Positions 414 to 24,000 of a DNA stretch of 24,000 nucleotides are shown piece after piece (position 1 is the first letter of the stretch; each line of letters begins with the position of its first letter). Source of the stretch: an uncultured Emergencia sp. (GTDB taxonomy: Bacteria > Bacillota > Clostridia > Peptostreptococcales > Anaerovoracaceae). The stretch lies in assembly GCA_965146355.1 (NCBI GenBank), contig CBCTFZ010000002.1, positions 1-24,000 of the forward strand, written 5' to 3'. Made by a program: the position numbers and the translations under genes. Below the pieces are notes generated by a model that worked only from the letters and a program-made list of their open reading frames with translations, did not search any database and had not been told where the DNA came from.

Positions 414-561
414 CAATTTCGTAATAAAAAAGACACCGTAGCAATACCATTTCTTAACAGAACCATCACAATTTATTGCTATACTAAAATTGTCAAAAGG
501 AGATAGGGTTACACGAGATAATTTCTTTTGAACGTTCTTTCTTAATTATTAAATATCGCAG

Positions 562-600
562 CCAAAAGGCTCTGCTGAAAAGCAGAGCCTTTTGGTTTGC
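562..600. terminator. Bidirectional intrinsic terminator
   Basis: A perfect 15-bp stem, ccaaaaggctctgct (562-576) / agcagagccttttgg (581-595), closes a GAAA loop. T-runs follow the GC core on both strands. It sits just downstream of the minus-strand gene ending at 623. Confidence 0.8.
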
Positions 601-622
601 TTGGTTGGATTACCGCAGTCTG

Positions 623-1195
623 TTACGGTCGTATTTTTCCCCAAACAATTTCATTCAAGGATAATTTACCATTGTCTTCGCGGATAATTTTCCAGTTTTT
701 TAGGTCCGATATGGTTTTATCAAATTCGTCCATTTTGAAATCTTCTATTTGATATTCTTTCAGCAAAGCGTTTACTTCCTCTTTTAACTGTGGCGGTATA
801 AGGCCATGTTTATATGAGCTGCATTTGTGAAGCGCATATACGACGATTTCAGAGTTGCGGTTTAAGCTTTTTTTCGTGGCTGCACCGATGCAGAGAGCAG
901 ATAAGAGTGCCAGTTTGAGATACTCAAATTCATTGTCCGGCGAATCTAAAGCGACAACAAAATCGGCAAGTGCTTTCAGGACATTTTTCATGTTGAGCCG
1001 AGCGTTGCCCGCCTTGTAAGAACTGGAATCTTTCCCAAGGAAAATCATATCCCGTTTTGGAGAATCAGGGATAATTTCTAAATAGTTGTCCATTATGATG
1101 TCCGCAGCTGCAGGGTTCAAATTATGGGTCTGGCAATAGTGCTTTAGGCGCTCTCTGATTTTATCATCCATCTGCTTGGCTTCGATTCTATTCAT
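623..1195 (-). CDS. Hypothetical 190-aa protein, partner of the HExxH protein (no family recognised)
   Basis: The ORF is clean, with an AGGAGG RBS (plus-strand cctcct, 1203-1208) upstream. Its ATG overlaps the upstream gene's stop as ATGAATAG. The region is AT-rich. The sequence looks alpha-helical, and the C-terminal ~70 aa (…EFDKTISDLKNWKIIREDNGKLSLNE…) resemble a winged-helix pattern; that is inference only. Confidence 0.75.
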   Translation of the reverse strand: MNRIEAKQMDDKIRERLKHYCQTHNLNPAAADIIMDNYLEIIPDSPKRDMIFLGKDSSSYKAGNARLNMKNVLKALADFVVALDSPDNEFEYLKLALLSALCIGAATKKSLNRNSEIVVYALHKCSSYKHGLIPPQLKEEVNALLKEYQIEDFKMDEFDKTISDLKNWKIIREDNGKLSLNEIVWGKIRP

Positions 1196-2246
1196 CTTTA
1201 ACCTCCTGTTTTTTTTCTCTCTTCGCTCTTTTCTCCGTGCGAATAATTTTATCCAGCTTTCCCCGGTCTTTTTTCAGAATTAATTCTGTGCGGTAGTTGT
1301 CATAAACATCGAGAAACCCGTTGTATAAATCGTTTCCCTCTGCAGTGTTAAAATCATATTTATCGTCGTTAGCAAGAGCAAATAAGTTGCGAATCCTGTC
1401 TTTGGGAAGGGGATGAGTATCGCTGGAAATTCTCTTATCATACAGGACCCTGTCTGTATAGTAAAATAAATCGAAATAATTCATATACATCAGTGGTGCC
1501 AGATAAGTGTATTCTTCTAAAATTCTGTCATCCTTGTCCATGCGGCTTTGGTCGACAATGATTTTTAACACGATGTCATAAGCAATGCTATCTGCGGTAT
1601 ATTCTTCTTTCCGTTTATTGGGGAATGTCCTGCCGCTGTCTTCAAAATATACATGGGCTATTTCGTGGGCTAGATTGAAGGCAACCACTGTCCAGTAACA
1701 TGAAGAGGCCAAATTCATAATCTGCGCATCATCTTTGATAGTCTGCAGTAAGATTTCATTTGACTTTCCGCTTGGGATATCTCCCAGTATACCCACATCA
1801 TTCATGAGAAACAGTAAGTACAGAAAACAATCGCCGTATACATGCGGATTGTCAAATTCCTTGGACCATTTAAATATTACCAGGAAAAAGGCCATCATAG
1901 AATACTCAAATAATTCGTCAACATGGAGAAAACGTTCTATGGATTTATCTACGACGGCATAACTGTTAACAGAATATTGATAGCAGTTGCTCAGTTTTAT
2001 GTCTTCTCCTCTATATCCGTATTCCCTCTCAAAATATGACTTCACGAGCCGGAACATTTGATTCAGATTCAGTTTGCTCATATTCTGCCGAAGCTGTTCC
2101 TCCGTCAGACCTGAAGCCCGGAAGTATTTCAGCATGATATCCATGCCGTATTGTTCATCTTTAACAGATTCTCCTTCAAAGCGTAAGGATTCATATTTGT
2201 CCTGGTTTACAGATAGACGGATTTTAACGTTATGTTTTTTTGACAT
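1188..2246 (-). CDS. HExxH zincin-like metallopeptidase-domain protein (ImmA/IrrE-like motif layout), 352 aa
   Basis: The HEIAH motif is encoded at 1653-1667 (verified by reverse-complementing). It is followed 16-17 residues later by KEEYTADSIAYDIVL, which resembles the HExxH…E-x-x-A-x-x-(F/I)-A signature of COG2856/M78 peptidases. I chose the ATG at 2246 (MSKKHNV…), which has an AAAGGAG RBS 5 nt upstream, over the TTG at 2261 in the ORF track. Confidence 0.75.
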   Translation of the reverse strand: MSKKHNVKIRLSVNQDKYESLRFEGESVKDEQYGMDIMLKYFRASGLTEEQLRQNMSKLNLNQMFRLVKSYFEREYGYRGEDIKLSNCYQYSVNSYAVVDKSIERFLHVDELFEYSMMAFFLVIFKWSKEFDNPHVYGDCFLYLLFLMNDVGILGDIPSGKSNEILLQTIKDDAQIMNLASSCYWTVVAFNLAHEIAHVYFEDSGRTFPNKRKEEYTADSIAYDIVLKIIVDQSRMDKDDRILEEYTYLAPLMYMNYFDLFYYTDRVLYDKRISSDTHPLPKDRIRNLFALANDDKYDFNTAEGNDLYNGFLDVYDNYRTELILKKDRGKLDKIIRTEKRAKREKKQEVKDE

Positions 2247-2267
2247 AGATACTCCTTTCAATGTATT

Positions 2268-2286
2268 TACATTTTACCAAAATGTA
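2268..2286. promoter_or_regulatory. Candidate operator: perfect 8-bp inverted repeat TACATTTT-acc-AAAATGTA over the -10 box
   Basis: The repeat is read directly from the sequence. It overlaps the predicted -10 of the minus-strand operon. A direct repeat of ATGTATTTA (2261-2269 and 2282-2290) flanks it. Confidence 0.4.
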
Positions 2287-2299
2287 TTTATTTTAACAA
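2271..2299 (-). promoter_or_regulatory. Sigma-70/SigA-type promoter of the two-gene islet operon
   Basis: The minus strand reads TTGTTA-17 nt-TGgTAAAAT (-35 at 2299-2294, extended -10 at 2276-2271). This lies about 25 nt upstream of the RBS. Confidence 0.55.
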
Positions 2300-2367
2300 T
2301 ATTTATTTTAAGTATTCTCTGCTTCTGGTCTGACTTGAGCGTCTCAATAGATGTGACAAGTCATTTC

Positions 2368-2396
2368 TTGAAACCCTGGGAAATCCGTGGTAAAAT
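2368..2396 (+). promoter_or_regulatory. Promoter of the CbiT-like gene
   Basis: TTGAAA (2368-2373)-17 nt-TGgTAAAAT (-10 at 2391-2396), about 38 nt upstream of the ATG at 2434. Confidence 0.55.
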
Positions 2397-2433
2397 ATTG
2401 TAAAGAATATAATCCGAAAGGGATGGTTGACTT

Positions 2434-3336
2434 ATGGAAAAACAGCTTTTTACCAACGAAATTATATTATCCTGGCTGCAGTATTTTGCGGACAATACAC
2501 CCATTGATTTGGAACAGATTAAGATGATGGATATTACCAAGAAGAACAAGAATCTGATTCCTACGGTGGAGGCCCATAAAGCAGTGCTTGCTTTTATGGA
2601 GGCAGGAGACCCGGAGATTTTTTACCATATGTGGAATGCGGGTCTGGGAGATTGCGAGGTCTGGTATAACGAAGGGTCAACCCCCGACGGACCGATTAAG
2701 CACGATAAAGTCAGCGATATGATTAACCGGGGCATTAACGAATCTGCAGGCATGTTGGTGGTGAATCCTAATTCCCGAAATACCTATAAGATGGGTATGG
2801 ATAACCTGAATTTCCGTAAGGATTCCGGCAGAGTCGGCAGCGAGATACGGGCTATTCTCTTAAATAAGATGGGAATTGCAAGGGAAGATACAGTCTGCGT
2901 TATCGGCGGAGAGAGTATGGCCATTGAGGCGGCTTTTCAGGCAAGCGAGGGCACTGTTATCGCTGTGGAATACAGCCAGAGAAACAGAGACGCTATGCAG
3001 GACAACATAGCTTACTTTGATTTGAGAAATATGAAGGTTACAGACCACGTGGACGCGGATACTTTCAAGGATTATCCCATTCCGTCTGTGGCATTTATGG
3101 TGGCTTCAGCCAGCATGGAGCAGGAGATTCGCTGCCTGCTGCAGCTGAACCCTATGATGAATCTGGTGATTTATACGCTGGATTTCAGCGTGGCCGGGGC
3201 AATGAGAAGTATCCTGGAGGCAAGCGGTATCAAAGATGCCGAGGTCATTCAGATTTCCGTCTCCAAGCTGAACAGCAAGAATGCCTTTGAGGTGCAGCCT
3301 GCTCCTTGGATTATCACCGGCAAAGCGGAAGCATAG
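2434..3336 (+). CDS. CbiT-like (precorrin-6B methyltransferase fold) protein with an unrecognised ~130-aa N-terminal domain
   Basis: The C-terminal ~165 aa align by eye to CbiT (…EIRAILLNKMGIAREDTVCVIGGESMAIEAA…VIAVEYSQRNRDAMQDNI…VIQISVSKLN…PWIITGK). No cobalamin genes are nearby. Confidence 0.65.
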   Translation: MEKQLFTNEIILSWLQYFADNTPIDLEQIKMMDITKKNKNLIPTVEAHKAVLAFMEAGDPEIFYHMWNAGLGDCEVWYNEGSTPDGPIKHDKVSDMINRGINESAGMLVVNPNSRNTYKMGMDNLNFRKDSGRVGSEIRAILLNKMGIAREDTVCVIGGESMAIEAAFQASEGTVIAVEYSQRNRDAMQDNIAYFDLRNMKVTDHVDADTFKDYPIPSVAFMVASASMEQEIRCLLQLNPMMNLVIYTLDFSVAGAMRSILEASGIKDAEVIQISVSKLNSKNAFEVQPAPWIITGKAEA

Positions 3337-3356
3337 ATATTTGGAACCCATTACAG

Positions 3357-3404
3357 GGGCTGTCAAACAAACCCCGCCGGCCGGCGGCATTTGCTTGACA
3401 GCCC
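3357..3404 (+). terminator. Stem-loop downstream of the CbiT-like gene (terminator-like, no U-tract)
   Basis: A perfect 10-bp stem, gggctgtcaa (3357-3366) / ttgacagccc (3395-3404), encloses the 14-nt palindrome ccgccggccggcgg. No T-run follows, so its role as a terminator is uncertain. Confidence 0.4.
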
Positions 3405-3515
3405 TTGATAGCGTCTCTAAATATAACTGAAATAATTACATTTAGGGAAGGAGTTAGATTGAGTACAGTAACCACCTGCTGGAAAAGCTGGTGGGAGGCC
3501 GCTGGGACCATCAGT

Positions 3516-3543
3516 TTGTAATTGGAGAAAAAGGCAGTATACT
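3516..3543 (+). promoter_or_regulatory. Promoter of the Rrf2 operon
   Basis: TTGTAA (3516-3521)-16 nt-TATACT (3538-3543). This leaves a short 5'UTR containing an AGGAGG RBS. Confidence 0.5.
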
Positions 3544-3545
3544 GC
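3534..3545. promoter_or_regulatory. Perfect 12-bp palindrome GCAGTATACTGC over the -10 box, a candidate Rrf2 autoregulatory operator
   Basis: The palindrome is read directly. It overlaps the predicted -10, 20 nt upstream of the Rrf2 start codon. Confidence 0.4.
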
Positions 3546-3564
3546 GGCAGGAGGATTTTTTAAT

Positions 3565-4023
3565 ATGAGAATTAACACGAGATTCGCCGTGGCGGTACAC
3601 GCACTGGTGTTAATCGCCATTAATGATGACAGCGGATTACCCATAACCTCCCAGCTAATTGCAAAGAGCGTGGGTACCAATCCGGTGGTGATTCGGAGGA
3701 TGCTGTCCCAGCTGAAGCAGGACGGATTCATCCAGGCTCAGGCCGGCTGTCCGGGTTACAGGCTGACGAAAAGTCCCGCAGAAATCACCTTGAAAGAAAT
3801 TTATACAGCCATGCGCACAGAGGGCGAGGAGAGGACCCTGTTTGATGTGCACCCCAGCCCGTTTCAGGGGTGTCCCGTGGGCAGGCACATTCACGAAAGT
3901 CTGGAGGAGCCCCTTTGGCAGGCCCAGATGGCCTTGGAAAACGCCTTGGACCAATACACCCTGCAGGAGGTATCCCGAAACATCTCTTTAAAAATATCAG
4001 AAGAAAAGGAGCAACAGAAATGA
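3565..4023 (+). CDS. Rrf2-family transcriptional regulator
   Basis: The N-terminus MRINTRFAVAVHALVLIA…ITSQLIAKSVGTNPVVIRRMLSQLKQDGFI is the canonical Rrf2 wHTH. Only two Cys are present, not the three-Cys cluster-binding motif of IscR/NsrR. Confidence 0.9.
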   Translation: MRINTRFAVAVHALVLIAINDDSGLPITSQLIAKSVGTNPVVIRRMLSQLKQDGFIQAQAGCPGYRLTKSPAEITLKEIYTAMRTEGEERTLFDVHPSPFQGCPVGRHIHESLEEPLWQAQMALENALDQYTLQEVSRNISLKISEEKEQQK

Positions 4024-4796
4024 AAAAAGTAACCGCAGTATATTTCAGTCCCACAAAAGGGAGCAAACAGTATACGGAGGCAGTGGCCAGAGCTTTGGAC
4101 GAAAGTTTTACCTCCATCGATTTGACTGCCCCTGAAGCCAGAGAAAGAGAGTATACCTTTGGCCCTGAGGACCTGGTTGTCTTCGGCGCGCCTGTTTACG
4201 CCGGAAGACTGCCCCTGCTTTCCCGGGGAATTTACGATGGAATCAAAGGTGACCATACGCCGGCCGTTTTCACTGTTACTTATGGAAACAGAGAGTATGA
4301 CGACGCCCTGCTGGAAACCAGTGATATCTGCCGGGCCAACGGATTTATAGGGGTGGCGGCGGCAGCTTTTTTGGCACAGCATACATATTCGGATAAACTT
4401 GCGGGAGGCAGGCCCGATGAAAAGGATTTGCAGGAGGCGGCCGCCTTCGCTAAAAAAATTGAGGCAGCTCTAATTCAAGGAAGCGGCGGAACACTGCAAA
4501 TTCCGGGAAATCGTCCCTATAAAGAGGCTAAACGCCTGCCGATGCACACTGAAACGGCAGACCGATGCACCGAATGCGGTCTCTGCGCCAGAGTCTGTCC
4601 GGCAGCCGCCATTGAAGACGGAGCCGGAATGGAAGCAAACGGCGACAAATGTATCGGCTGTCTGGCCTGCGTAAAGAACTGTCCCCGCGGCGCCCGCTTT
4701 GTAAAAGACCCGGGCCTTGCGGCAATCAGGGAAAAGCTGGAGCCTAATTTCGCCAATATTCACAAAGAAAACAGTTATTTTCTAAAAACCAAATAA
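4020..4796 (+). CDS. Flavodoxin-like domain fused to a 2x[4Fe-4S] ferredoxin domain
   Basis: The protein starts MKKVTAVYFSPTKGS…, a flavodoxin-like N-terminus. The C-terminus carries CTECGLCARVCP and CIGCLACVKNCP motifs. The ATG at 4020 overlaps the Rrf2 stop (ATGA) and has an AAGGAG RBS at 4005-4010. The ORF-track start at 3870 would overlap Rrf2 by 150 nt, so I rejected it. Confidence 0.85.
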   Translation: MKKVTAVYFSPTKGSKQYTEAVARALDESFTSIDLTAPEAREREYTFGPEDLVVFGAPVYAGRLPLLSRGIYDGIKGDHTPAVFTVTYGNREYDDALLETSDICRANGFIGVAAAAFLAQHTYSDKLAGGRPDEKDLQEAAAFAKKIEAALIQGSGGTLQIPGNRPYKEAKRLPMHTETADRCTECGLCARVCPAAAIEDGAGMEANGDKCIGCLACVKNCPRGARFVKDPGLAAIREKLEPNFANIHKENSYFLKTK

Positions 4797-4863
4797 ATAC
4801 ATTTTTACTGTTGATTTTTTTGCCGGGCGATATAATCTAGTATAGGCGATAGGAGAAAAGACG

Positions 4864-6237
4864 ATGGTAAAAGAAAAGAAACATGAAATAGATATGGTGC
4901 GGGGACCGGTACTGCCGAAGATGATTCGATTTTCCCTGCCCTTGATGCTGACCAGTATTCTGCAGCTCATGTTCAACGCTGCGGACATTATTGTAGTAGG
5001 AAGATTTGCTGGTGAAAATTCTCTGGCGGCAGTAGGCTCAACAACTTCACTGATTACCCTGCTTCTGAATCTGTTTATCGGCCTATCCATAGGCGCCAAT
5101 GTAGCTGTTGCCAGATATTTTGGCGCAAGGCGGCAGGAAGATTTGAAAGAAACAGTACATACAGCGATTTCTCTGAGTATCATCAGCGGTATTTTGCTGA
5201 CGGCTGCAGGTCTCCTGGGCTCCAGACAGATTTTAATCTGGATGCAGACTCCAGGCGAGGTTCTTGAACTGGCGTCCCTGTATTTGAGAATATACTTTCT
5301 GGGTATGACGGGAATGATGGTGTACAACTTCGGCGCCTCCGTGCTGAGAGCAGTGGGAGATACCAAGCGTCCTCTGTACTTTCTCGCCTTTTCCGGCGTA
5401 GTCAACGTAACGCTGAATCTGTTTTTCGTTGTGGGACTCCACATGGATGTGGCCGGTGTCGGTGCTGCCACGGCAATCTCTCAGTGGATTTCCGGCTTTT
5501 TAATTGTGCGGTGCCTGCGGAAAGAAAACAGCGGAATCAGATTGGTTCTGAAAGACCTGCGCCTCCACAGGGATAAACTGATTGGAATTTTTAAGATTGG
5601 AGTTCCGGCAGGGGTGCAGGGGATGATTTTTTCCCTTACCAACGTGCTGATTCAGACAGCTGTCAATTCTTTCGGCGCTGTGGTTGTGGCGGGCAATTCT
5701 GCCTCCGGAAACATAGAAGGCTTCATCTATTTTGCGATGAACGCTTTCTATCAGGCGACCATATCCTTTACCAGCCAGAATGTGGGAGCGAAGAAAATCA
5801 GCCGTATCGATAAGATTCTAACCAGGGGCGAACTTTGCGTCATCGGAGTAGGCCTGGCTATGGGCGTCCTCTTTGTTGTATTCGGAAGGCCCCTTCTGTC
5901 TATTTATTCCACCAGCCAGGCGGTAATCGACGCCGGTATGCAGCGTCTTGTGGTTATCGGTCTGACCTATTTCCTATGCGGAGCCATGGACGTTATGGTG
6001 GGCGCCCTGCGGGGTATGGGGTATTCTGTGATTCCGATGCTGGTCTCTCTGGTAGGAGTGTGCGGTCTGCGTATCCTGTGGCTTGTAACGCTGTTCCGCA
6101 TTCCTCAGTTCCACACCGTAACCATGCTTTTCGTCACCTATCCGGTAACCTGGAGCGTAACCCTTGCGGCCCATATCGTTACCTTTATCATTGTCCGCAA
6201 AAAGCTGCGGGAAAGAGCGGTGGCCCGTCAGCTGTAA
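4864..6237 (+). CDS. MATE-family efflux transporter
   Basis: 457 aa, 12-TM-like, with the N-terminus …GPVLPKMIRFSLPLMLTSILQLMFNAADIIVVGRF… typical of the MATE/NorM/DinF family. An AGGAGA RBS is present. Confidence 0.9.
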   Translation: MVKEKKHEIDMVRGPVLPKMIRFSLPLMLTSILQLMFNAADIIVVGRFAGENSLAAVGSTTSLITLLLNLFIGLSIGANVAVARYFGARRQEDLKETVHTAISLSIISGILLTAAGLLGSRQILIWMQTPGEVLELASLYLRIYFLGMTGMMVYNFGASVLRAVGDTKRPLYFLAFSGVVNVTLNLFFVVGLHMDVAGVGAATAISQWISGFLIVRCLRKENSGIRLVLKDLRLHRDKLIGIFKIGVPAGVQGMIFSLTNVLIQTAVNSFGAVVVAGNSASGNIEGFIYFAMNAFYQATISFTSQNVGAKKISRIDKILTRGELCVIGVGLAMGVLFVVFGRPLLSIYSTSQAVIDAGMQRLVVIGLTYFLCGAMDVMVGALRGMGYSVIPMLVSLVGVCGLRILWLVTLFRIPQFHTVTMLFVTYPVTWSVTLAAHIVTFIIVRKKLRERAVARQL

Positions 6238-6269
6238 AAGGCGGCCGCCTTTAATAGAGAAGAAATGTG

Positions 6270-6311
6270 AATCCTCCGGCGCAGATATGCTTATCTGCCG
6301 GAGGATTTCTG
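6270..6311 (+). terminator. Intrinsic terminator after the MATE gene
   Basis: A long stem, aatcctccggcgcagata / tatctgc-cggaggatt with one bulge, is followed by a weak T-run. A 16-nt perfect palindrome, aaaggcggccgccttt (6237-6252), sits at the stop codon. Confidence 0.55.
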
Positions 6312-6348
6312 TATATGAGAGAACAAAATACATAAAAAATACATTTTC

Positions 6349-6377
6349 TTGTAAATTATGAAAGACTATGATATAAT
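6349..6377 (+). promoter_or_regulatory. Promoter of the symporter gene
   Basis: TTGTAA (6349-6354)-17 nt-TATAAT (6372-6377). Confidence 0.5.
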
Positions 6378-6449
6378 ATAACTCGCTTTTCTGTTTTAAA
6401 GCAAAGCAATGCATATTTGATTTAGATTAGGAAAAAAGGAGAATCAGTG

Positions 6450-7856
6450 ATGGGAAATTTCATAGACTCATTGGTTGCTGTTACAGGAGATATCAGCGAT
6501 TGGCTTTACAGTAACCTGCTGTTTTGGGTGTTAATTGTTGTAGGCATCTTTTTTACTCTGCGCACCGGATTTGTGCAGATTAGACTGTTTCCTGAAGGAA
6601 TCAGAGTTTTGACAGAAAAGAGTCATGACGGAGGGATTTCATCTTTTCAGGCGCTGATGATTGCCACCGCCTCCAGAGTGGGAACCGGCAACATTGCCGG
6701 AATTGCCACAGCCATTGTTTCCGGCGGACCGGGCGCGGTATTCTGGATGTGGATTATGGCTATTATCGGCGGTGCGTCCGCCTTTGTAGAGTCTACTCTG
6801 GCGCAGATTTATAAGCGCAAGGACGGAGAAATCTTTAAGGGAGGCCCTGCCTATTATATAGAGCGGGCCATGAACGCCAGATGGCTTGGTATTATCTTTG
6901 CGATTATGCTGATTCTGACCTTCGCCTTTGGCTTTAACGGACTGCAGGCGTACAACATCGCTTCTTCCCTGGAGCACTACGCAGGGGATAACTATGCTAC
7001 GGCAGCCATGGTTACGGGCGTTGTTCTTGCCGCAATCTCGGCATTTCTGTTTTTCGGCGGCGCACATAAAATCAGCGTGGTATCTTCCGTTATCGTGCCG
7101 GTCATGGCTGCAGTGTACATCCTCATCGGCTTAATTATCACCTTTGCGCATATTGGGGAGATTCCTGCTATTTTCGGCATGATTTTCAGAGAAGCCTTTG
7201 ACTTCGAAGCAATTTTCGGCGGTTTTGCAGGGTCCTGTATGGTATGGGGCGTAAAGAGGGGCCTTTTCAGCAACGAAGCCGGTATGGGTTCCGCTCCTAA
7301 TGCGGCTGCTGCTGCCGATGTAAGCCACCCGGTTAAGCAGGGTCTGGTACAGGTTATCTCTGTTTTCATCGACACCATTATCATCTGCTCTACCACAGTG
7401 TTTATCGTGCTGTGCACGGGCAAATATACGGTAGGCGGTACGCTGGACGGTATTCCTCTCGTACAGGAATCCGTAAAATCCATGTTCGGTGAAGTGGGCG
7501 TAGGGATTATCACAGTATCGGTTGCCCTGTTTGCCTTTACATCCCTCATCGGAAATTATTTCTATGCTGAGTTCAATGTAAAGTTTATCAGCGAAAACAA
7601 GGTCTTCATGACAGTTTTCAGGCTTTTGGCGGTGGTCATGGTATTTATCGGCGCCAATTCAGATCTGAAGCTGGCCTGGAATATGGCCGATATTCTGATG
7701 GGCGGCATGGCCCTTGTAAACATCATCGCTCTGTTCTGCCTGGGAGGCATTGCAGTGAAAGCCATGAACGATTACATCGACCAGAAAAAAGAGGGAAAGA
7801 ATCCTGTGTTCAAGGCTGCCAATATCGGTCTGCATAATACGGATGTCTGGAAATAA
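6450..7856 (+). CDS. Alanine/glycine:cation (Na+) symporter, AGCS family
   Basis: …SSFQALMIATASRVGTGNIAGIATAIVSGGPGAVFWMW… is the AGCS signature region. The protein is about 468 aa and polytopic. The ATG at 6450 lies 8 nt after AGGAG; a GTG at 6447 is an alternative start. Confidence 0.9.
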   Translation: MGNFIDSLVAVTGDISDWLYSNLLFWVLIVVGIFFTLRTGFVQIRLFPEGIRVLTEKSHDGGISSFQALMIATASRVGTGNIAGIATAIVSGGPGAVFWMWIMAIIGGASAFVESTLAQIYKRKDGEIFKGGPAYYIERAMNARWLGIIFAIMLILTFAFGFNGLQAYNIASSLEHYAGDNYATAAMVTGVVLAAISAFLFFGGAHKISVVSSVIVPVMAAVYILIGLIITFAHIGEIPAIFGMIFREAFDFEAIFGGFAGSCMVWGVKRGLFSNEAGMGSAPNAAAAADVSHPVKQGLVQVISVFIDTIIICSTTVFIVLCTGKYTVGGTLDGIPLVQESVKSMFGEVGVGIITVSVALFAFTSLIGNYFYAEFNVKFISENKVFMTVFRLLAVVMVFIGANSDLKLAWNMADILMGGMALVNIIALFCLGGIAVKAMNDYIDQKKEGKNPVFKAANIGLHNTDVWK

Positions 7857-7873
7857 AAGAATTACCGGAAGGG

Positions 7874-7919
7874 GCTACCTGCGTTAACTGTTTTTTCGTT
7901 AACGCAGGTAGCTTTTTTT
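7874..7919 (+). terminator. Intrinsic terminator
   Basis: A perfect 15-bp stem, gctacctgcgttaac (7874-7888) / gttaacgcaggtagc (7898-7912), is followed by T7 (7913-7919). Confidence 0.85.
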
Positions 7920-7977
7920 CTATTTTCTTTCTAAATGGAAAATGAAAGTTAACCTCAATAACCAGAAAACCAAAAAA

Positions 7978-8201
7978 CATGTATAACTCTTTTCCTCGCT
8001 CCAAGGTGACAGTTATACACGTTTTATTATTTTCACTGAACTTATGTATAAATTGCACCAATTGGTGGGCTGTTCTGCCCCTTTCGTGCCCATTTATATG
8101 CAAGTTTACTGCGTCTGCTGTATTCTGATTGGCTTCGAGTTATACATATTTTCATCAAAACCTGGGAGTTATGTATAATTGCGGTGATTTTTTTATACAT
8201 A
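7978..8201. repeat. Array of six copies of the motif yrTGTATAAm in alternating orientation
   Basis: The core TGTATAA occurs at 7980-7986, 8045-8051 and 8172-8178. Its complement TTATACA occurs at 8013-8019, 8140-8146 and 8193-8199. All six were read directly from the sequence. Confidence 0.6.
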
Positions 8202-8255
8202 TATTTGAAATTTACAGGCAAAAAGGTTAACTCCTCACCAACCTTCATTCTTGTC

Positions 8256-23815: not shown

Positions 23816-23891
23816 GCATCCTTAGCTCAGCTGGCAGAGCACCTGACTCTTAATCAGGGTGTCCAGGGTTCGAACCCCTGAGGGTGTACCA
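23816..23891 (+). tRNA. tRNA-Lys (anticodon CUU)
   Basis: I folded the cloverleaf by hand. The acceptor stem is gcatcct/agggtgt (two G-U pairs). The D arm is gctc…gagc. The anticodon stem is cctga/tcagg with loop ctCTTaa. The T arm is caggg-ttcgaac-ccctg. CCA is encoded. Length is 76 nt. Confidence 0.93.
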
Positions 23892-23901
23892 ATAACAAAA
23901 A

Positions 23902-23929
23902 ACGATATCCATTTGGGTATCGTTTTTTC
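23902..23929 (+). terminator. Intrinsic terminator after the tRNA
   Basis: The stem acgatatcc / gggtatcgt has an ATTT loop and is followed by T6. Confidence 0.8.
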
Positions 23930-24000
23930 GTCGTTTGAAACCTTGGGAAGGGGATTGACCGTGAAATGAGCCGGTCTGGTGGATTTTTCTCTGCAGAACT

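Follow-up and report, generated by a model that had tools for sequence, protein, structure and literature searches.

The window analysed here is a 24,000-nucleotide (nt) stretch of DNA from an uncultured Emergencia sp. (contig CBCTFZ010000002.1, forward strand), in which an islet at positions 414-2433 holds two coupled genes on the minus strand. The first encodes a 352-amino-acid (aa) protein with an HExxH metallopeptidase motif, hereafter the zincin, and the second a 190-aa protein, hereafter the partner. An earlier note, made by reading the sequence, had described both open reading frames (ORFs), the motif and the translational coupling of the genes, and we found them as described: the genes share the overlap ATGAATAG, and the partner start is preceded by an AGGAGG ribosome-binding site (RBS) (Table 1). 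The zincin is read from an ATG behind an RBS of its own, AAAGGAG; an alternative TTG start at 2261, which would lengthen the ORF, overlaps this RBS, and database gene calls give 352 aa.

Composition and control signals of the islet

Gene composition was compared after the gene calls had been checked against database annotation, with the 22 other genes of the window as the comparison set. The G+C content of the islet is 0.383, compared with 0.491 in the rest of the window. The zincin gene (G+C 0.388; G+C at third codon positions, GC3, 0.436) and the partner gene (0.403; GC3 0.445) are the two lowest of the window in both measures, lying at z = -4.0 to -4.6 relative to the 22 others (0.504 +/- 0.025; GC3 0.585 +/- 0.035). 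The AT-rich islet of the earlier note is thus real, but its figure of 45-70% G+C for the flanks was too high, the flank genes having 45-54%. In L008, L031 and L048 (loci are cited by L numbers) an AT-rich pair likewise stands between flanks of higher G+C.

A consensus scan upstream of the zincin gene predicted a promoter with 9/12 consensus matches and an extended -10 TG, at a position that agrees with the RBS and the ATG. The upstream region holds 11 promoter-like sites, modestly more than the 6.9 +/- 2.6 of shuffles, and the candidate site is a decent promoter match, short of the near-consensus one that had been claimed. The inverted repeat reported over the -10 box exists (TACATTTT-ggt-AAAATGTA), but an equal repeat arises in 7.5% of spacer shuffles, and it sits where the copies of a tandem direct repeat join, so that it is weak evidence of control. 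The tandem unit reads TTG(T/G)TAAAAT..AAATACATT, with TTG and TAAAAT in every copy; it may be an operator or a promoter in duplicate, or just a duplication as such, and none was seen in other lineages. In seven other lineages compared, neither a palindrome nor a repeat was conserved upstream of the zincin, and with nothing conserved there we dropped the idea of a conserved operator at the zincin promoter; the autoregulation proposed earlier finds no support from conservation in this region.

Beyond the 3’-end of the partner gene lies a strong hairpin common to the partner gene and the convergent ABM operon. A/U runs stand at its stem ends and U-runs inside them, which makes termination in both directions plausible, as the claim of a bidirectional terminator had it. 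Scans for Rfam families, tRNAs and tandem repeats revealed no RNA component in the islet.

The zincin, the partner and their pairing

A word-index search gave at least 195 matches to the zincin, and all source-named members of this large family are called “hypothetical protein” and come from Lachnospiraceae or Eubacterium. Motifs and profiles were counted on 49 homologs. Across these 49, HExxH, E214/E215 and H278 are invariant, and all three motifs characteristic of the phage-exclusion protease Lit (MEROPS/Pfam Peptidase_U49) are present in 47. In E. coli Lit, a cell-death peptidase whose sequence was taken from the e14 prophage, the motifs read HEISH 160, EEREAD 180 and HPAAYERI 232, as against HEIAH 194, EEYTAD 214 and HPLPKDRI 278 in the zincin, and the spacing from HExxH to EExxAD is exactly 20 residues in both. 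About 170 N-terminal and about 65 C-terminal residues of the zincin have no counterpart in Lit. The order HExxH ... E ... HPxxxxR(I) is also that of the M48 gluzincins and minigluzincins (HtpX/Ste24-like).

The profile matches of the zincin are all local, around the active site and sub-threshold. The most consistent is the PADLOC Lit model (6e-6; 45/49 members), and the NCBIfam Lit model (PRK09672) matches at 5.8e-6, with 25.7 bits against a 274-bit cut-off. Among Pfam families, M48 was matched at 1.4e-3 (19.0 bits against 20.3) over the region from the Glu helix to HP, M78 at 8e-3 (16.4 bits against 22) and U49 (PF10463) at 0.078 (13.1 bits against 23.9). At E < 0.01, two of the 49 members match M48, while 27 match M78, the best at 1.6e-5; precomputed tables give PF10463 for most homologs, often flagged weak or faint. 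Against the defence models of PADLOC-DB v2.0.0 the zincin gave weak Lit and U41 matches only, and the capP model matches one member of the 49. No full-length, above-threshold Lit/U49 match was obtained, nor an above-threshold M48 profile match with integral-membrane topology. By these profiles and motifs the pair fails the curated Lit/U49, M78 and M48 thresholds yet clearly has their catalytic design. The kinship to ImmA-type peptidases raised by the earlier note holds as a weak M78 similarity, but the closest known relative of the core is Lit, M78 being comparably weak.

The AlphaFold model of the zincin (predicted local distance difference test score, pLDDT, 87; predicted template-modelling score 0.88) places a three-strand sheet (83-109), the active-site helix (174-203) and a Glu helix (211-233) within a larger helical protein. 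A Foldseek search of PDB and BFVD gave no significant whole-protein match, the best being a phage “Peptidase M48” (probability 0.99, template-modelling score 0.46), and a sequence-profile search found no PDB match for the zincin family or for the partner family. Lit is membrane-associated and cleaves EF-Tu in the presence of the T4 Gol peptide (PMC13228613 and its references). Unlike Lit, the zincin has no transmembrane segment (maximum 19-residue Kyte-Doolittle hydropathy 1.47), and a Lit-like membrane location was dropped on this ground. The zincin is predicted to be a soluble gluzincin-type zinc endopeptidase and, as judged from its catalytic core, a distant relative of Lit. Its departures from M48 are the lack of transmembrane helices, profile matches in only two of the 49 members, a context both mobile and defence-associated, and a dedicated partner.

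Representative clusters of the partner family number 215 (E <= 1e-3), and almost all are 183-195 aa long; the family has no consistent Pfam, PADLOC or PDB match. The earlier statement that the 190-aa protein could not be assigned to a family is borne out, but its predicted structure (pLDDT 85) does contain a recognizable domain, a C-terminal winged helix, behind an N-terminal alpha/beta domain. The conserved SxKxGN segment of the latter is exposed and modelled with lower confidence. Foldseek matches to the winged helix are only local and generic (winged-helix domains of ORC1, H1, MotA and cullin). The family is acidic, with a median isoelectric point (pI) of 5.1 and a net charge of -7, the winged-helix domain carrying -3 and the putative recognition helix -1. 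Among 63 partners checked with Pfam none matched an HTH_3-type or XRE domain, as had been said of the window’s partner, and checks of structure, hydropathy and Pfam found no enzymatic, pore-forming or transmembrane features. The models suggest that the partner belongs to an unannotated family that joins a novel N-terminal domain to an acidic C-terminal winged helix.

Analysis by tblastn and gene calls revealed the partner directly after the zincin in 12 of the 12 other lineages with enough sequence, the junction being a 3-nt gap or an overlap of 4 to 35 nt. In-frame fusions of the two proteins form six clusters, three within the close family (P0102, on 28 contigs, P0103 and P0134) and three divergent (P0261, P0266 and P0311). 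The immediate neighbours of the pair differ in every lineage, with no conserved third gene. Judged by gene order and fusion, zincin and partner are an obligate pair. In matched pairs the zincins are 48-68% identical and the partners 29-47%, the partner diverging at about 1.6 times the rate of the zincin; such rapid divergence suggests a role in specificity or sensing.

Natural variants have lost one gene or the other. In L017 a 23-bp microhomology deletion interrupts the zincin and the partner is intact, while in L026 a 10-bp repeat-slippage deletion frameshifts the partner and the zincin is intact. In L021 and L023, from two different samples, the partner is replaced after about 24 codons, and the intact zincin is identical to that of L022, which keeps its partner. 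These variants indicate that both genes are dispensable and that the zincin survives without the partner. They fit a protease that needs its partner, or a trigger, to become active.

Genomic settings of the pair

Within the species the position of the cassette is constant, and the pair is intact in most same-species contigs examined. The flanks are metabolic and transport genes, none of the 22 other window genes matches a PADLOC model, and no integrase or transposase was called within +/-10 kb on same-species contigs, in agreement with the housekeeping-like, integrase-free surroundings reported before. The earlier note had asked for a comparison of the slot between the ABM gene and the CbiT-like gene in related genomes. 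In a sister species (L038) the CbiT-like ortholog is 88% identical and the ABM ... CbiT-like arrangement is kept, while the slot carries a different gene, an AT-rich one for a 461-aa NYN-domain protein (L038:3254-5921; Pfam 3e-5). Upstream of ABM, an AbiEi gene (PADLOC 2e-65) takes the position that the ABC-transporter operon has in the window. The slot content together with AbiEi suggests that the locus is a small variable defence spot. In another strain of the same species (L013:1-4190) the lysis end of a prophage, comprising a 1495-aa PBECR3 protein, a holin and Amidase_2, replaces the ABM side and joins at about window position 535, some 30 bp outside the terminator, which suggests that the spacer between ABM and the partner holds a phage attachment or recombination site. 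That the cassette is part of this prophage was rejected, since the join falls beyond the terminator and the cassette occurs in the window without the prophage.

In the other lineages the pair stands among defence genes, on a conjugative element or at the edge of a prophage-like module (Table 1), and the co-occurrence check that the earlier note had called for came out in its favour. The identities of MkoB, AbiEi/AbiEii and PDC-S11 were confirmed by PADLOC models. When 108 neighbouring proteins were pooled, 282 PADLOC models were matched at E <= 1e-5, AriA, AbiLi, ThsB, NsnB, GajA and PtuA among them, and the neighbour types across lineages include PARIS/Septu-type genes. As read from these neighbourhoods, the pair is cargo that, in gut Lachnospiraceae, travels between defence islands, conjugative elements and the edges of prophages. 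Searches of the plasmid collection and of IMG/VR found no match, and the single match in the phage collection (29% identity) lies on a faecal contig that is unverified and has no partner. Sequenced phages and plasmids and the contigs of IMG/VR are essentially devoid of the family.

Table 1. Features of the islet, motifs and domains of the two proteins, and gene content around the pair elsewhere
Feature	Position	Strand	Details
Spacer, ABM stop to terminator	414-561		mobile-element junction at ~535 used in another strain (L013)
Terminator hairpin	562-595		common to convergent ABM operon and partner gene; 15-bp stem, 4-nt loop; -31.6 kcal/mol, z = -6.8 (fold and inverted-repeat scan)
Partner gene	623-1195	minus	190 aa; ORF
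Coupling junction	1188-1207	minus	overlap 1188-1195; partner ATG 1193-1195, zincin TAG stop 1188-1190
Partner RBS AGGAGG	1202-1207	minus	6 nt before partner ATG
Zincin gene	1188-2246	minus	352 aa from ATG 2246; ORF and sequence
Zincin RBS AAAGGAG	2252-2258	minus	upstream of ATG 2246
Tandem direct repeat	2260-2308	minus	~20-bp unit, ~2.5 copies, over zincin promoter (TRF)
Inverted repeat over -10	2268-2286	minus
Promoter-like site	2271-2299	minus	-35 TTGTTA (2299-2294), 17-nt spacer, extended -10 TGnTAAAAT (2279-2271)
HExxH (HEIAH)	zincin residues 194-198		H194, E195, H198
EExxAD (EEYTAD)	zincin residues 214-219
HPx5RI (HPLPKDRI)	zincin residues 278-285
N-terminal alpha/beta domain	partner residues 1-105		conserved SxKxGN; predicted model
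C-terminal winged-helix domain	partner residues 108-185		predicted model
Around pair, L018			RHS, SMC-type ATPase, SIR2-STALD, TIR, integrase
Around pair, L021-23			Macro, AbiH, SIR2-STAND
Around pair, L024-26			KAP NTPase, AAA_15/21+RloB, TIR+DUF4365
Around pair, L031-32			PDC-S11 (8e-120); pair at edge of prophage-like replication module
Around pair, L033-35			MkoB (1e-46; Mokosh), MutS_V ATPase, integrase, E1/E2-like genes
Around pair, L036			AbiEi (3e-72) and AbiEii
Around pair, L048-50			conjugative element; Shedu-type SduA_C gene close by in L048

Several further observations concern these loci. The phage-collection contig (L053; MT836637.1, an unverified “Bacteriophage sp.”) encodes, within 2583-8204, a distant 316-aa zincin relative with the motifs HELYH, ELRAD and HPTPKERQ; there is no partner homolog, a 157-aa ORF overlaps the start of the relative, and ORFs of 328, 588 and 530 aa come next, of which the latter two resemble, by eye, an OLD/ABC-type ATPase and a UvrD-type helicase (Gabija-like). 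Fusion P0102 (L027-L030) has a setting other than classical defence genes: it lies among agr-like quorum-sensing genes (AgrB, a HATPase_c_5 kinase and a LytTR regulator) and radical-SAM/bacteriocin genes, and small ORFs of 33 and 261 aa always come after it. Tyrosine recombinases of about 305 aa, 45-61% identical, stand beside the pair or a few genes from it in three otherwise different defence islands (L018:14552-15475, L021:8929-9840 and L024:8530-9450), and this single family may be the sign of a hot spot for defence genes, tied to a recombinase, in Lachnospiraceae; the recombinase of L033 is unrelated (~20% identical). A 4.65-kb segment is inverted between two samples at 99.9% identity (L025:3669-8316 and L026:2352-6999). 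It holds an 818-aa ORF and two ATP-grasp-type genes, is bounded by inverted repeats of about 24 bp (18 bp perfect) and has one end some 215 bp away from the gene of the tyrosine recombinase neighbouring the zincin pair, and it looks like a recombinase-driven invertible element in the defence island.

In the window itself, the divergent gene at 2434-3336 encodes a 300-aa protein whose residues 136-284 weakly match CbiT-type methyltransferases (NCBIfam 8e-8, far short of the cut-off) and whose N-terminal region of about 135 residues has no family. Its position beside a CbiK/NEAT/ABC-transporter/ABM operon (seen in L001) hints at a connection with the metabolism of haem or corrinoids. Two further strong hairpins are probably terminators, one with 15-bp arms at 7874-7914, in a non-coding gap of 0.37 G+C after a Na/Ala symporter gene, and one with 11-bp arms within 23816-23930, right after tRNA-Lys CTT (23816-23891), the only tRNA of the window.

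A candidate defence module and the explanations that compete with it

No system in PADLOC-DB has component models that match both proteins, Pfam and NCBIfam assign no known system to the pair, and our literature searches on Peptidase U49 or Lit-like two-gene systems brought up no Lit-like zincin with a dedicated partner. Composition, a variable slot, pairing and fusions, defence contexts and the lack of a library assignment all agree with the earlier proposal of a foreign protease-plus-partner cassette, and that the pair is a conflict or defence module is, in our judgement, probable. For a more specific picture, in which the islet came in by horizontal transfer as a two-gene operon complete in itself and serves as a mobile module against phages, of the abortive-infection type, by the mechanism below, we would claim even chances at most. 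More tentatively still, the pair may be an undescribed two-component anti-phage system, common in human-gut Lachnospiraceae and mobile on conjugative elements and defence islands, in which a dedicated sensor subunit with a winged helix enables a Lit-like zincin to cut a protein of the host or the phage. Zincin and partner would form a complex with the partner as its regulatory or sensing subunit, because the two are fused in places and tightly coupled and the partner diverges the faster. The protease would stay latent until a phage-derived cue is sensed, and the activated zincin would then cut a protein, from host or phage, on which phage growth depends, much as Lit does with EF-Tu. A further likeness between the zincin and Lit is that each is encoded close to a recombinase on mobile or defence DNA (lit adjoins intE in e14), and both are dispensable accessory genes.

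A number of points weigh against such an anti-phage system. The similarity to Lit is confined to about 50-125 core residues and lies far below family thresholds, and an hhalign comparison of the family with E. coli Lit gave a probability of 17% over 51 columns. Lit is a single protein, whereas the zincin has an obligate partner gene. The complex, the latency of the protease, its trigger and its substrate are all matters of inference, and the case for defence is one of guilt by association, with no other defence gene among those scanned in the 24 kb of the window. The M78-type similarity of 27/49 homologs, the winged-helix partner and the association with mobile elements would likewise suit a different kind of module, a protease/repressor switch.

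In such a switch, of the ImmA-ImmR, IrrE-DdrO or CapP-CapH type, the zincin would cleave its partner, a DNA-binding repressor with a winged helix, on a stress or phage signal and so de-repress nearby mobile-element or defence genes, a paradigm documented for immune operons (PMC13228613). The layout is the same, a zincin of the Peptidase_M78 kind and a small protein with a fold of the helix-turn-helix class at mobile or immune loci, and the pair often stands beside tyrosine recombinases, on conjugative elements or at a prophage edge; the promoter repeats of the window could serve as the operator. However, every M78 score is below the gathering threshold, the capP model matches a single homolog, and neither an XRE-type helix-turn-helix nor a GAF domain was found. 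The acidic charge of the partner, down to its putative recognition helix, ill suits a repressor, the gene order is reversed, with the protease first, and no operator is conserved in the seven lineages. Moreover, the neighbours differ in every lineage and the window offers nothing obvious to regulate. We regard the switch as the strongest competitor, though an unlikely one.

Rather less likely is a type II toxin-antitoxin or addiction module, in which the partner would neutralize a toxic zincin and so stabilize the mobile elements that carry it. A compact, translationally coupled operon on mobile DNA, the occasional fusion of its genes and AbiE-type toxin-antitoxin systems nearby would all suit it. 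But a constitutively toxic zincin should not outlive the loss of its antitoxin, and the zincin does persist, intact, where the partner is deleted (L021 and L023) or frameshifted (L026), which argues, if indirectly, against a classical toxin-antitoxin pair; the putative antitoxin is also downstream and large and lacks a conserved operator. The toxin-antitoxin option of the earlier note is disfavoured on these grounds.

We give a similarly low standing to a protease-activated effector, in which the zincin would be the sensor or activator and the partner a latent effector freed by site-specific cleavage, as in Ser/Cys-protease modules. Modules of this logic, a protease beside a small uncharacterised protein in defence contexts and occasionally fused to it, are widespread (Evans et al. 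2025, PMC12642450), and the exposed SxKxGN segment of the partner, with its lower model confidence, would be in keeping with one. In the published modules the protease is trypsin- or caspase-like and its neighbour an MBL, alpha/beta-hydrolase, Pepco or EACC1 protein, and metalloproteases are not mentioned (PMC12642450). The pair here differs in protease class, and its partner has no Pfam match to the four effector families and none of the enzymatic, pore-forming or transmembrane features looked for. Least of all do we credit a protease of ordinary housekeeping or stress physiology that has an accessory subunit and no part in genetic conflict, since the metabolic and transport flanks of the window and the intact pair in most same-species contigs are outweighed by foreign composition, absence from the slot of the sister species, a patchy distribution over unrelated neighbourhoods in which defence genes abound and inactivating deletions in natural strains.

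Lit is among the oldest known abortive-infection proteins, and few of its relatives have been studied; to our knowledge none needs a partner. The defence repertoire of gut Firmicutes is itself poorly charted. If the pair is a defence module, it would add a metalloprotease-based two-component system to that repertoire, with the partner as a new protein family, and if the Lit-like reading is correct it would extend the 40-year-old single-protein Lit paradigm to an architecture of separable sensor and protease. As such it would also be a tractable case for questions of zincin latency and substrate, for which the fused and split versions and the natural partner-loss and protease-loss variants provide ready-made genetic controls.

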